A DNA stretch of 64,000 nucleotides, taken from an uncultured bacterium (GTDB lineage Bacteria; Cyanobacteriota; Vampirovibrionia; Gastranaerophilales; Gastranaerophilaceae). Under the pieces are notes generated by a model. That model did not search any database, had not been told where the DNA came from, and saw nothing but the letters and a program-made list of their open reading frames with translations. Positions 34,146 to 39,255 of this stretch are shown here, in pieces; the first letter of the stretch is position 1; each line of letters starts with the position of its first letter. The position numbers were made by a program, and so were the translations under genes. The stretch is from assembly GCA_902489575.1 (NCBI GenBank), contig CABUAQ010000001.1, forward strand, positions 146-64,145. The letters run 5' to 3'.

Positions 34146-34529
34146 ATGAAAAAGTTATTATCGATTTTTGCATCGGTCTCATTAATCGTTTTGCCTGCTG
34201 TTGCTACAAACATCAATATTGATAAGGGTATTTCAATAATTTCGGTAACGCCGCAGGACAACGGGAAATTAGTAACCGTTAAAGCCTACGATGATGATAA
34301 TACTATGAGCGAAAGCTACAAACAAACAGTTTCACATGAATTAAGTTATTACGGAATAAAATGTAATTCAAAAGAAATAATATACTACGGCTACAAATTG
34401 TATAATCCGGAGAATGTCCTGATTAAGGAATTTAACCTCCCGCCAGCATTTAATTCCTGGGTTAAAATAGATGATAATGACCAGAGTTTAAAATTCGGAC
34501 ATATAATATACAACAAAGTTTGTCAATAA
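34146..34529 (+). CDS. Small secreted hypothetical protein
   Basis: Signal peptide MKKLLSIFASVSLIVLPAVA. SD AAAGGAG upstream. 127 aa. No family recognised. Confidence 0.6.
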   Translation: MKKLLSIFASVSLIVLPAVATNINIDKGISIISVTPQDNGKLVTVKAYDDDNTMSESYKQTVSHELSYYGIKCNSKEIIYYGYKLYNPENVLIKEFNLPPAFNSWVKIDDNDQSLKFGHIIYNKVCQ

Positions 34530-34537
34530 GCCTGTGA

Positions 34538-34564
34538 AAAGACCCTTAAACAATAAGGGTCTTT
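34538..34564. terminator. Bidirectional terminator between convergent genes
   Basis: AAAGACCCTTA (34538-34548) / TAAGGGTCTTT (34554-34564) with a 5-nt loop. Confidence 0.7.
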
Positions 34565-34569
34565 CTCGT

Positions 34570-36747
34570 TTATATTTTTACTAATTCAGAAATTGTCGGA
34601 TCTAATAATCTTCTGCCAACGTTTTCAAAAGCAATTGAACAAAGAGTTTTGTTACCGTATTTTATAATTTTTTCAATAACTCCGCGCCCGTATCGTGGAT
34701 GAGATACACTATCACCTTGCTTGAAATCTCCGATACTTTCTTCAAAATTATCTCCCTGCTCCGCAGGATAAACAGGAACAACAGGTGGCTGCTCATTAGT
34801 AAAAGCATTATCTAACTCAGAGTCTGACAGGACTTCAGCATCTAAAAAATCTTCAGGCTGTGCCATTTGATTATCTTCAATAAAATTCAAATCATCTTCA
34901 GTTAATTCTGAAACCTGCTCAAAATTATCAACAGATTCTGAAATATCTGAAAAGTCATTTAAATTACTATTATCGTCCACAGACAGACTATCCAGTTCCA
35001 AATCCGCTTCCAATACAGGTTCTTCTAAAAGGTCATCATTTAAAGAAACATCTTCTAATAGATTATCTACAGGTTCTATTATCGAAGGTTCAGAAAAGGC
35101 AGATTCTGAATCTTCAGGCAGACTAACCGGTTGGGCAACGGCAGATGAATTCACGGTCTGTACAGGCTCACTAACAACAGGAGAAACAACCGGTTCGGGA
35201 TCCGGTTGAACAATTTCTTGTGTTGAATAAACTGCAGCTTCTGATATTACCGGAGATTGCTCTGCAACCACAGCTGAAGATTCTTCCACAACTTCTATCG
35301 CAGGTTGTTCAATTTCCGGAATAGGTGTAATCAATTGCGAAACCTGTGCCGGTTCTGTGGATACAGCCTCATATTGAGTGGAAATATTATCTGTTGTATC
35401 AAGAGCTTCAGGCTCACTTTCTGTCTGTGCTGAAGTCTGAACAGGTACCATATGCCCATCATCTTCAATCTTTACTAATTGGAGATTTTCACTACCTGCA
35501 GGTACAAACTGATATCGATCACCCAACACATCATCTCTTGTTAAATCAAGATCCAAATCTGACATATCTGCAATGAACGGAATTCCCTGGGTCAATTTAC
35601 CATAAACAATACATTCATCAGGATTTAGTTTATTAAGGAATGTATTATATGCAGTAAAATCATGATTTAAGGATTGAGGAGCAAATAAAATCATATTTTG
35701 AGCATGCTGCTTCAATTCAGATGCATATTTATACGAGCTGCTCACAATCATTGTTGTAAATATATGATTATTGTTTATCAATTGTTTTAAAAGCTTTTTG
35801 TCAGAATTTTCATCTGTTAAACAAACAAACAGGTAGACATACTTATCAAAAGATTCCAGTGTTGAGTGAATAAATGTTATAACCTCTTTTTGCAAAGATT
35901 CGTGAATATTTTTTAAATCAATAATTGAACAATTCTTCTCATCCAATTCCTTTTTTAACGCAAAGACTTCATCCTTTGTATTGGCAAAAACATTTGCATC
36001 TTTGTATTTTAAAAGTTTATTTTTTAAAAGTGCAAGTTCGGGCATTTGCATCTCTTTATACTGATTAGCAACAACTTCAACAAAATTATCAATCGGTAAA
36101 AATTCAAAATCTAATGTTTTGATATACTGCTGAACTGCATAAAAAATATCCTGTATAACAGCTTTCGTTGGAGCATCAACTTCAGCTAATTCATATTCAA
36201 AAATATAATCTATCATTTTTGAATTAAGCGGAAGCTTAAAATCTTTTGCAAACTCAATTTTTGGATAATCTTCAAACAAATTAGACGTATCAATAACAAC
36301 ACTTTTTTCTTTCAACTGGAAAAGTTGTCTTATACAGTTTGAAATAAATGTCATTTTATTAATATCTTTTTCTGCAAAAATAGTAAAATTACGTTCGAAA
36401 ACAGAAATATCTAAATTAAGCATTTCGCTTTGCTGTGAGAGTTCACCAATTTTTATAGCAGTTTCAACAGGCAATAAGTTTAAAAGTTCTTCAGAAGGCA
36501 AAAAAGATAATTCAGAATTTATGCTTGGAATTGAACCGTCATAATTATCAACCACCCCGTCAGGAGTAAAAGTAAACAGCAATTTAGCAATAGCAAAATT
36601 ATTCACAGTATCTGATTTCAAATTTACGAATTGAGCAACATATGATTTTCCGTCAGCTGCCAAAATAATAAACCTTCCCAATATCGGGGTTTCACCCTCA
36701 CTATAAGATAATTTTACCAAATTATTCTTAATCTCAAGTAATTTCAT
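34570..36747 (-). CDS. HerA-like protein lacking a P-loop, with an acidic disordered region and a PcrA/UvrD-type Tudor-like C-terminal domain
   Basis: 725 aa. N-terminal barrel-like lead-in (LGRFIILAADGKSYVAQFVNL). No canonical Walker A. About 200 aa of E/D/P/S/V-rich low complexity. C-terminus 'GDSVSHPRYGRGVIEKIIKYGNKTLCSIAFENVGRRLLDPTISELVKI'. Confidence 0.5.
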   Translation of the reverse strand: MKLLEIKNNLVKLSYSEGETPILGRFIILAADGKSYVAQFVNLKSDTVNNFAIAKLLFTFTPDGVVDNYDGSIPSINSELSFLPSEELLNLLPVETAIKIGELSQQSEMLNLDISVFERNFTIFAEKDINKMTFISNCIRQLFQLKEKSVVIDTSNLFEDYPKIEFAKDFKLPLNSKMIDYIFEYELAEVDAPTKAVIQDIFYAVQQYIKTLDFEFLPIDNFVEVVANQYKEMQMPELALLKNKLLKYKDANVFANTKDEVFALKKELDEKNCSIIDLKNIHESLQKEVITFIHSTLESFDKYVYLFVCLTDENSDKKLLKQLINNNHIFTTMIVSSSYKYASELKQHAQNMILFAPQSLNHDFTAYNTFLNKLNPDECIVYGKLTQGIPFIADMSDLDLDLTRDDVLGDRYQFVPAGSENLQLVKIEDDGHMVPVQTSAQTESEPEALDTTDNISTQYEAVSTEPAQVSQLITPIPEIEQPAIEVVEESSAVVAEQSPVISEAAVYSTQEIVQPDPEPVVSPVVSEPVQTVNSSAVAQPVSLPEDSESAFSEPSIIEPVDNLLEDVSLNDDLLEEPVLEADLELDSLSVDDNSNLNDFSDISESVDNFEQVSELTEDDLNFIEDNQMAQPEDFLDAEVLSDSELDNAFTNEQPPVVPVYPAEQGDNFEESIGDFKQGDSVSHPRYGRGVIEKIIKYGNKTLCSIAFENVGRRLLDPTISELVKI

Positions 36748-36816
36748 TTTTGCCCTCTCTGTTTTAGAAAAATTGTACCATGAAAACTAAAGATATACCT
36801 AGATTTATAAAAATAC

Positions 36817-37995: not shown

Positions 37996-39255
37996 CTAAA
38001 AATCAGACAGAATACAAGCTCCAATATCTTTTCTGTAGTTCATTCCATCAAAAGATATCCCTGCTAAATCTTCATATAAATTGTTTTTTGCCCTTGCCAA
38101 AGTTAAAGCTTTCCTTGTGAGTACAAAAGCTGTTGAACCTTTTGTTAAATACATACCCGACTGATTTTTATTAACGTCTGTGAAGTCAATATCTTCGATA
38201 TTATCAATCAATTCCAAACCATAAATCTGTTTGTTTTCAAACTTTGATAAAACAAGTGCAGAAACAGATGCAGCAGTATTAGAAAGAATTTGCTCATATT
38301 CATCTGCAAACAAACCTTCAATACAAGCGTTAAAAATTTTGACCAAATCATCATCAACAGAATTCAAAACCGCAGATGCATCAAAATCTTGCAAGAAAGG
38401 TTTAAATTCGTTGACATAAAATTTATCTTCCCCCGTTAGCGTACAATCAAGTCCAAGAATACCAATATATGGAGTTCCCTTTTTATGAAGAGAAGCAAGA
38501 GTATTTTTTATAATATTTTCAACCCTTGATATTACAACTTGAGAGACCTTATAATCAGGAACAAAACAACCCATACCGCTTGTTAAAATCCCGCTGTCGC
38601 CGTCACCTGAAAATTTATAATCAGCTACAGTATTCAACGGAAGCGCACTATAACCATCAGTCACATAATAAACGGTAAAATTATGACCAAATGTATAATC
38701 TTCAATTAAAACACCTGTTTCCCCTTTAGAAAACAAACAATCCAAAAACTCTCTTGCAAGAGTAACAGTAGGACAAACAAGTCTATCACCAAGACTATTT
38801 GTTTCGCTGCACTTGATTGTAACAGGGAAATTGGAATTTTTTAAATAATCTTCTGCCATTTGTAATTTGTCAAAAATACCAAATTTTGAAGTTTGTGCAT
38901 GAATCTTATATAAAAATTTTTTACCCAGAACTTTATTTACAGCGATATTACAGGCCGATTTCACAGGCCCAAAAACACGTTGCCCGTTTGTCTGAAAAAA
39001 AGAAACAATATCAGCTTTCAAAGCCTGTTCAGAAACGGGAACAGTCAACCCAATATCGTTTTCTAATACAAATTTTAAAAGCCCTGTCAAATCATCTTCT
39101 CTTATGTCAACAGATGAATATACATTTTCTCCGGTGCAGCCGCCGGGAGCAACATAAACCTTATCAACATTGTCTGCCTTGGAAAGTTTTTTAGCTAATG
39201 CAGATGAGACTCCGCCTTTTCCAACTATTAAAATATTTTGTTTACTGTATTCCAT
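37996..39255 (-). CDS. PurD-like ATP-grasp protein with substituted catalytic motifs
   Basis: Colinear with phosphoribosylamine--glycine ligase ('ILIVGKGGVSSALAKKL', 'KVYVAPG', 'GILTSGMGCFVP', 'YRKDIG'). GGREHA is changed to GGVSSA, KADGLAAGKGV to KCSETNSLGDRL, and EFNCRFGDPE to EFKPFLQDFD. Confidence 0.65.
   Translation of the reverse strand: MEYSKQNILIVGKGGVSSALAKKLSKADNVDKVYVAPGGCTGENVYSSVDIREDDLTGLLKFVLENDIGLTVPVSEQALKADIVSFFQTNGQRVFGPVKSACNIAVNKVLGKKFLYKIHAQTSKFGIFDKLQMAEDYLKNSNFPVTIKCSETNSLGDRLVCPTVTLAREFLDCLFSKGETGVLIEDYTFGHNFTVYYVTDGYSALPLNTVADYKFSGDGDSGILTSGMGCFVPDYKVSQVVISRVENIIKNTLASLHKKGTPYIGILGLDCTLTGEDKFYVNEFKPFLQDFDASAVLNSVDDDLVKIFNACIEGLFADEYEQILSNTAASVSALVLSKFENKQIYGLELIDNIEDIDFTDVNKNQSGMYLTKGSTAFVLTRKALTLARAKNNLYEDLAGISFDGMNYRKDIGACILSDF

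Follow-up and report, generated by a model that had tools for sequence, protein, structure and literature searches.

We analysed a stretch of 64,000 nucleotides (nt; the window, meaning that whole stretch) of contig CABUAQ010000001.1, from an uncultured bacterium of the Gastranaerophilaceae, and more particularly one gene on its minus strand that encodes a protein of 725 amino acids (aa). All coordinates are positions in the window. The open reading frame (ORF) is intact, beginning with ATG and free of internal stops, and lies where an earlier note on this DNA had placed it; every segment quoted in that note was recovered from the translation, namely the barrel segment (aa 23-43), ERNFTIFAEKDINKMTF (aa 118-134), KSVVIDTSNLFEDY (aa 148-161) and the tail (aa 678-725). 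Public records label the protein only 'hypothetical protein'. It consists of an N-terminal domain with the fold of the HerA ATPases but devoid of their catalytic motifs, a long polyanionic linker and a C-terminal Tudor domain of the PcrA/UvrD type (Table 1), the net charges of these three parts being -19, -63 and +3, respectively. Homologues are numerous (2802 in 90% clusters, 355 clusters at 50% identity) and those representatives that were examined have the same three-part architecture, so that we are not dealing with a chance ORF.

Table 1. Features of the gene and of its product. Positions refer to the window.
Feature	Residues	Position	Strand	Remarks
Whole coding sequence	1-725	34570..36747	minus	725 aa, 81.4 kDa, isoelectric point (pI) 4.2, net charge -79
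HerA-fold pseudo-ATPase domain	1-405	35533..36747	minus	beta-barrel, RecA-like core, helical insert
HAS-barrel-like N-terminal beta domain	1-113	36409..36747	minus	model secondary structure; aligned to the N-terminus of HerA 4d2i
Former Walker A site, ERNFTIFAEKDINKMTF	118-134	36346..36396	minus	aligned to HerA LAILAATGSGKSNT; without Gly-Lys-Ser/Thr
VVIDTSNLFEDY strand	148-161	36265..36306	minus	corresponds to HerA 'iFDxHGEY'; D153 invariant family-wide
Family signature DFKLPLN	169-175	36223..36243	minus	F170, K171, P173 and L174 invariant or nearly so
Former Walker B region	303-320	35788..35841	minus	canonical 'iEEAHrF' aligned over 'LFVCLT'; conserved acidic pair gone
Former arginine finger and sensor	329-357	35677..35763	minus	canonical 'ExRK ... 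QRPS' residues unconserved
Polyanionic low-complexity linker	406-671	34735..35532	minus	net charge -63
LTEDDLNFIED	615-625	34873..34905	minus	acidic-hydrophobic motif class 'LTxxDLDFI[DE]'
VVPVYP, 'hydrophobic-P-[VI]-[YF]' motif	656-661	34765..34782	minus	fixed spacing, about 16 residues upstream of the Tudor domain
PcrA/UvrD-type Tudor domain	678-725	34573..34716	minus	profile, AlphaFold2 and Foldseek
Shine-Dalgarno-like GAGGG		36753..36757	minus	5 nt upstream of the ATG; read from the sequence
Extended -10-like word TGGTACAAT		36772-36780	minus	in the 69-nt gap after yqeK; inferred from sequence only
Strong terminator-like hairpin, 11-bp stem		34538..34564	.	begins 5 nt past the stop; common to the convergent lipoprotein gene

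For the N-terminal region the earlier note had proposed the layout of the HerA/DUF87 ATPases, and Foldseek, profile searches and hhalign all led us to HerA. The AlphaFold2 (AF2) model of this domain, computed from a 50-member alignment, had a predicted local distance difference test score (pLDDT) of 90.5 and a predicted template modelling score (pTM) of 0.86. When it was compared by Foldseek with the Protein Data Bank (PDB), HerA accounted for all 50 best matches (E 4.6e-16 to 6e-11, template modelling score (TM) 0.55-0.70), including Sulfolobus 4d2i, 8zis and the Sir2-HerA, DUF4297-HerA and HerA-NurA structures. In the ESM Atlas the domain was placed beside DUF87/HerA clusters (feature score 0.96, TM 0.76-0.79). 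The same relationship was recovered with sequence profiles: HerA 4d2i was the sole significant PDB match of the family profile (E 5.3e-6, or 6.8e-7 with a broader profile), hhalign joined the family to 19 canonical cyanobacterial DUF87 proteins over 384 colinear columns with 84% probability (95.6%, E 1.3e-8, with the broader family profile), and of 15 divergent members 5 had a direct match to PF01935 (best E 5.9e-9). The 725-aa protein alone obtained 13.6 bits for PF01935 (E 0.071), below the curated cut-off of 23.2 bits, and no significant match to its aa 1-440 was found in Pfam or NCBIfam. These results indicate that the N-terminal domain is related to HerA by homology and not by convergence, although this single protein remains under the curated DUF87 threshold. 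In all 355 clusters the domain begins at residue 1 and is conserved over about 400 residues. The features conserved across the family are Q39 of the barrel (invariant in the 50-member alignment), G101, D153, DFKLPLN, 'LLKNKL...FA' and G383, and the mean column identity across genera is 39% for this domain and 57% for the Tudor domain. We also considered a viral origin and rejected it, as a Foldseek search against viral structures returned only weak matches of the FtsK/HerA superfamily (TM 0.5 or less).

The active site of HerA has disappeared from this fold. In the profile and hhalign alignments HerA 'AATGSGKSNT' pairs with 'FAEKDINKMT' of the 725-aa protein, that is, exactly at the location where the earlier note would have expected a P-loop. 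A Walker A motif of the form GxxGxGK[ST] was found neither in this protein nor in 150 family representatives nor in 13 distant members, which came from four GTDB families other than its own (f1). That nothing matches [AG]x4GK[ST] and that the lone GKS belongs to the barrel had been stated correctly beforehand, but this GKS occupies aa 33-35 and not aa 32-34. Canonical DUF87 proteins (n=19) have invariant G189, G191, K192 and S193 in Walker A, E408, E409 and H411 in Walker B, E432, R434 and K435, and finally Q445, R446 and P447; when the family was aligned by hhalign with these 19 intact proteins, no conserved counterpart appeared for any Walker A, Walker B, ExRK or QRP residue. The earlier view that no cryptic P-loop is present is thus sustained by the alignments and by the motif search in homologues, and it applies equally to Walker B, the arginine finger and the QRP sensor. 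Since all four signatures are gone, these alignments show an N-terminal domain that should be unable to bind ATP, or to hydrolyse it, as HerA does. A substitute ligand site is argued against by the weak conservation of the former P-loop columns, few columns of the domain being less conserved. At this position one sequence of another GTDB family, f39, has a relic 'GDKAKEKT' and a second f39 sequence has 'GDRSKEKA'. The net charge of the N-terminal domain in turn argues against DNA binding.

The last 48 aa, previously likened to the Tudor-like domain of PcrA/UvrD, indeed modelled as such a barrel, at 1.5-2.0 Å from the Tudor structures of UvrD, PcrA and UvrD1. In the AF2 model of aa 640-725 the pLDDT was 93-97 over aa 679-725, which fold as a five-stranded barrel superposable on the solved PcrA/UvrD C-terminal domains. 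The best Foldseek match was 7egs_B, the UvrD C-terminal domain on the lobe of E. coli RNA polymerase (TM 0.87, 1.5 Å); 5dma (PcrA Tudor; TM 0.84, 1.9 Å) and 9dqs (TM 0.85, 2.0 Å) were also recovered, as was 7egt_B, the UvrD C-terminal domain bound to the N-terminal domain of UvrB. The ESM Atlas search agreed with the assignment to the UvrD/PcrA type. At the sequence level, aa 672-725 alone scored 24.3 bits with PF21196 (PcrA_UvrD_tudor), for which the cut-off is 23.9, and 36 of 36 family members matched this model; the match is thus marginal for the 725-aa protein and solid for the family. Compared with the PDB, the Tudor family profile matched the UvrD1 Tudor domain 9dqs (1.4e-7) and the E. 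coli UvrD C-terminal structures 7egs and 6yi2 (about 1e-5), together with full-length UvrD1 and UvrD. The resemblance is confined to this domain: NCBIfam uvrD models covered only the last 45-52 residues, and no UvrD-helicase or UvrD_C match of Pfam, that is no superfamily 1 (SF1) helicase core, was found in the protein. The CarD/TRCF domain PF02559 came next, with 20.7 bits on the isolated Tudor domain (threshold 23 bits) and weaker sequence matches in 32 of 36 members (best 4e-6), and the Tudor structures of CdnL, CarD and Mfd ranked after those of UvrD/PcrA in Foldseek. In Geobacillus PcrA, Sanders et al. showed the binding of RNA polymerase to depend on H681, W684, K712 and L714 (PMC5397179). 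H683, Y686, R712 and L714 of our protein sit at these positions, which among 44 family sequences are occupied by H in 42, by Y, F or H in 44, by R or K in 43 and by L, I or V in 42. Sequence and model together thus show a UvrD/PcrA-type Tudor domain in which the predicted RNA polymerase-contact residues have been retained.

Between these two folded parts lies the acidic low-complexity arm announced in the earlier note, which is indeed rich in E (38 residues), V (32), S (31), D (27) and P (23) but is somewhat longer than the 'about 200 aa' given there. Linkers of 122 full-length representatives measured 132-936 residues (median 298), with a D+E fraction of 0.32, a K+R fraction of 0.04 and a median net charge of -75 (range -17 to -185), and in distant members the net charge of the whole protein goes down to -264 (family f47). 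The arm has little predicted structure, and the ESM Atlas model of the whole protein had a mean pLDDT of 0.59. Linker sequences could not be aligned, although their composition is kept and three short motifs are conserved. The 'hydrophobic-P-[VI]-[YF]' motif was present in 108 of the 122 representatives, its proline being at least 90% conserved, and has no defined secondary structure in the AF2 model; 'LTxxDLDFI[DE]' occurred in 41 of 122, a strict reduced pattern being found 35 times against 1.7 expected from shuffles; and 'EIxKDVDK[MLV][FY]' characterised a subset (26 against 0.3 expected) and was not found in the linker of the 725-aa protein. Because charge and composition are kept and peptide motifs are embedded, the linker is not a random spacer and is selected for its length, its charge and these motifs. 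The carriers of family f39 (L020:4672-7266 (-) and L021:954-3899 (-)), which are environmental relatives with larger genomes, have linkers that are Q/P-rich and not acidic and contain 5-8 tandem repeats bearing 'HHIPD[DE]EF[LMI]PQQ', which may be reiterated binding motifs. Unlike in these f39 relatives, the linker DNA of the present genome has essentially no tandem repeats.

The taxonomic distribution of the protein was explored with a profile of its own family for a scan of the phylum and with the broader profile for a scan of the class. All 123 sampled genomes of f1, from 26 genera, carry it, nearly always in single copy, and it was not found with either profile in about 175 genomes from the rest of the phylum. 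The only split copy among the 123 (G084:C41:27745-28999, frames of 128 aa and 612 aa) may reflect a frameshift or an assembly error. The class scan covered 201 genomes and recorded the protein, canonical DUF87/HerA (E 1e-15 or better) and NurA. The protein was present in 54/54 genomes of f1, 2/2 of f39, 18/22 of f45, 3/4 of f47, 6/18 of f42 and 1/25 of f41, and in none of those of f40 (0/52), f43 (0/9) and f2 (0/11). Canonical DUF87/HerA was found in 49/52, 9/9 and 11/11 genomes of these last three families, respectively, and NurA in 51/52, 9/9 and 11/11; elsewhere the figures for canonical DUF87/HerA were 2/54 (f1), 2/2 (f39), 0/22 (f45), 0/4 (f47), 2/18 (f42) and 2/25 (f41), and NurA was present in f39 (2/2) and not found in the other five (0/54, 0/22, 0/4, 0/18 and 0/25 in the same order). 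The protein and the HerA-NurA system are thus nearly complementary, f39 alone having both, with HerA adjoining NurA; related genomes are, however, not independent observations and the number of independent events behind this pattern is small. Most f41 genomes are without the present protein, HerA and NurA alike. The pattern is compatible with a HerA duplication after which the parental HerA-NurA was lost. When the family hidden Markov model was compared with canonical HerAs of the class, with those of cyanobacteria and with the Sir2-associated HerA of the same genome, only small differences were obtained (17 to 0 bits).

The gene belongs to the vertically conserved core, is present in single copy and has no partner operon. 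Upstream of it on the same strand are yqeK, nadD and a PurD-like gene, and downstream on the opposite strand a lipoprotein gene, aroH, fmt and def. As pointed out earlier, the gene does run in the same direction as nadD, yqeK and the PurD-like gene, but this arrangement is kept in close genera only and carries no functional signal: the nadD-yqeK-gene / aroH-fmt-def order recurs only in the close genus G099, and neighbours vary by lineage (nadD/yqeK, dxr, OAD-beta, flhB, tuf, ileS with rarA/maf). We thus rejected an operon link to NAD metabolism or to the PurD-like gene, as the neighbours in other f1 genera, in f39 and in f45 are unrelated housekeeping genes. A NurA, Sir2, DUF4297 or other nuclease gene was not found beside the gene, and we likewise rejected a defence system, as there was no PADLOC hit and no nuclease, Sir2 or DUF4297 neighbour, and this is a core gene and not an island gene.

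Two of the neighbouring genes deserve a comment in their own right. The convergent gene (34146-34529, plus strand, 127 aa) begins with a lipoprotein signal and matches NCBIfam NF038029 (LP_plasma) with 24.7 bits. The PurD-like gene (37996-39255, minus strand), beyond yqeK and nadD, scored 215 bits with TIGR00877 (purD; cut-off 288 bits) and 34.5 with GARS_C (threshold 34.8), and may be a divergent or non-canonical paralogue. Elsewhere in the genome, the sole canonical DUF87/HerA (535 aa, intact GNTGSGKS) is encoded directly downstream of a SIR2_2 gene (372 aa) on the minus strand of a small contig (C97, L016:676-3567). The pair looks like a Sir2-HerA anti-phage defence pair; canonical DUF87 is sporadic in the family, being present in 2/54 other f1 genomes.

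Candidate partners of the Tudor domain can be sought through the sites to which PcrA and UvrD bind. Urrutia-Irazabal et al. described a helicase-interaction motif, [VIL]DxxTGE[VIL][VILT], in the SI1 region of RpoB and in UvrB (PMC8318588). Five frames of the present genome contain this motif, UvrB ('RIDNVTGEII') being the sole known PcrA partner among them. The other four we take to be MnmE, two AMP-dependent ligases and a small ORF. The motif is retained in UvrB of two further f1 genera and of f47. Mfd is also encoded in the genome, as is a normal UvrD/PcrA that bears a Tudor domain itself. Judging from these motifs, UvrB is an equally good candidate partner, and both the RNA polymerase beta lobe and UvrB remain candidates.

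Taken together, these data lead us to favour, as the probable though by no means assured reading, a non-enzymatic scaffold derived from HerA whose Tudor domain docks at the interface between transcription and repair. The description given in the earlier note, a catalytically dead HerA-fold scaffold joined by an acidic arm to a PcrA/UvrD Tudor domain, agrees with our fold, motif and Tudor analyses, and none of the three findings that would have refuted it was made. The N-terminal domain would still assemble into a HerA-like ring, from which several Tudor domains would project on long acidic arms. Each of them would dock at the site used by UvrD/PcrA, namely the beta lobe/SI1 region of RNA polymerase and/or, in UvrB, the 'TGE' hairpin. 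Where transcription meets repair, the protein would then be no motor but a multivalent adaptor or competitor, the acidic arm serving as a spacer, as a carrier of motifs and possibly as a nucleic-acid mimic.

Several observations weigh against such a scaffold or against one of its proposed partners. The PF21196 match falls to 18.9 bits in the full-length protein, under the cut-off of 23.9. About 50 residues that follow the last core strand in canonical relatives are replaced here by linker, and in such rings the nucleotide sites normally lie at the subunit interfaces. RpoB of five relatives was found to contain no strict helicase-interaction motif. The only related stretch in these proteins was 'VNRD[ST]GEIKEQEVY' in beta1, which we take to be the IKE region to which Mfd and CarD bind. 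No public RNA or DNA sequencing run was found listed for the gene. In our own genome, rpoB and rpoC were absent from the assembly (searched with TIGR02013 and for the NADFDGD and RHGNKG motifs in all six-frame ORFs). In f39 (G301, L075) the motif of UvrB has been lost ('VEQVNKNII') though the protein is retained, so that UvrB is not a universal partner. This loss also raises the question of how UvrD is recruited in f39. As to the assembly (G000), it comprises 160 contigs with an estimated completeness of 99%, yet is without rpoB/rpoC; this metagenome-assembled genome evidently lacks the RNA polymerase operon.

Some alternatives differ from the favoured scaffold mainly in what the Tudor domain would serve. 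The protein could be a UvrB-directed adaptor or an antagonist of UvrD, with its Tudor domain on the TGE hairpin of UvrB, and would then regulate or replace the recruitment of UvrD in nucleotide excision repair. That UvrB is the only known PcrA partner with the strict motif in the genome, and has it in f1 relatives and f47 too, speaks for this possibility, as do the presence of 7egt among the fold matches and the lack of the strict motif in RpoB of relatives. We nevertheless consider it rather unlikely, given that f39 has kept the protein with a UvrB deprived of the motif, that the best structural match, 7egs, shows the UvrD domain on the RNA polymerase lobe, and that the genome retains a Tudor-bearing UvrD/PcrA of its own. 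A polyanionic factor similar to the delta subunit, anchored on RNA polymerase by its Tudor domain, with an arm that mimics nucleic acid in order to clear or recycle the polymerase, as has been proposed for the acidic tail of Firmicute delta, and a HerA fold reduced to a stable anchor or oligomerisation module, seems to us quite improbable, even if a nucleic-acid-mimic role of the arm would be a sensible variant of the scaffold. The extreme charge of the linker is kept across class-level divergence (the median of -75 for n=122, and the whole-protein value of f47), the N-terminal domain is itself acidic, and the same logic operates in delta, with a folded domain and a disordered acidic region of net charge -47 (PMC7749165). 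Against it, the Tudor domain is the only Pfam hit and there is no homology to delta, f39 linkers are made of Q/P-rich repeats and are not purely acidic, and the conserved hydrophobic-acidic motifs of the linker suggest specific protein contacts over bulk charge.

Other alternatives question the loss of activity, or of function altogether. It is very unlikely that the protein is an active ATPase or a nucleotide sensor with a non-canonical site: the f39 remnant at the P-loop position and the invariant D153 of the 'DxxGEY' strand could be read in this way, but all four catalytic signatures have gone together, the former P-loop columns belong to the least conserved ones and the second f39 sequence has already diverged to 'GDRSKEKA'. 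The loss of the catalytic motifs and the failure to find HerA-NurA in most carrier lineages might also evoke a decaying, functionless relic of a defence or repair HerA. We find this hardly credible for a frame that is intact throughout the 123 family genomes apart from the split copy of G084, in a gene that has its own Shine-Dalgarno sequence and terminator, keeps its architecture in at least five GTDB families and shows across genera the column identities of 39% and 57% mentioned above. A bolder version of the favoured scaffold, which we regard as tentative and would not expect to hold, makes the pseudo-HerA ring, probably produced by HerA duplication, a hub in which up to six Tudor domains, on very long polyanionic tethers that also carry the conserved peptide motifs, gather RNA polymerase and/or UvrB molecules around it. 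The duplication would have taken place in an ancestor that still had HerA-NurA, most carriers would have lost HerA-NurA later and f39 would have kept both. If real, such a hub would bring order to the machinery of transcription and repair, or would buffer it, in a manner undescribed for any bacterium.

The protein is a pseudoenzyme derived from HerA and its architecture is novel, both of its folded parts coming from well-studied families. We found no description of this family in the literature on HerA, Tudor domains, pseudo-ATPases or Melainabacteria, and a motif-stripped HerA fold joined to a UvrD/PcrA docking domain by a polyanionic tether, 130 to more than 900 residues in length, is a combination new to the literature that was searched. 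Gut Melainabacteria are related to cyanobacteria, have small genomes and are uncultured. The present gene is one of their few universally conserved, lineage-specific genes and likely marks a real peculiarity in their handling of transcription and repair. It offers a clean natural case of a ring motor turned into what is probably a pseudoenzyme scaffold, its near-complementarity with HerA-NurA suggests duplication, inactivation and loss of the parental system, and the four predicted interface residues of its Tudor tail provide a directly testable handle.

Among known systems, the delta subunit (RpoE) of Firmicutes resembles the present protein by analogy only, as it also associates a folded polymerase-binding module with a long disordered polyanionic region, of net charge -47 (PMC7749165). 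Delta is monomeric and has 173 aa, whereas the tether described here reaches 936 aa among the representatives and has a folded domain at either end; no relationship between the two proteins in sequence or fold was detected. CarD/CdnL and Mfd (PF02559) contain a related small beta-barrel that binds RNA polymerase beta, but CarD and Mfd use the beta1 site and not the UvrD site.

HerA (DUF87, PF01935) is the hexameric DNA translocase of the HerA-NurA system, and defence HerAs are known from Sir2-HerA and DUF4297-HerA. With these proteins (PDB 4d2i, 8zis, 8wld, 8sub, 9x1l) the present one shares the fold, the order of the domains (barrel, RecA-like core with the 'hhhD..G' strand, helical insert and closing strands) and a colinear alignment of about 385 columns. 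It differs from them in lacking Walker A, Walker B, the arginine-finger block and the QRP sensor, in having a net acidic N-terminal domain and no nuclease or Sir2 partner gene, and in adding the C-terminal polyanionic arm and the Tudor domain, which are seen in no described HerA. The likeness to PcrA, UvrD and UvrD1 (PF21196; 5dma, 6yi2, 7egs, 7egt, 9dqs) concerns the Tudor domain, with 1.5-2.0 Å root-mean-square deviation (rmsd) and 25-31% identity, its location at the extreme C-terminus after a disordered linker, and the conservation of the H, aromatic, basic and Leu interface residues. In contrast to these helicases, our protein carries the domain on a dead HerA fold and not on an SF1 helicase, behind a polyanionic linker 3-20 times longer than theirs, with an extra 'P-V-Y' motif about 16 residues upstream and a signature of its own, 'YGNKxLCSIxFxNVGRRLLDP'.

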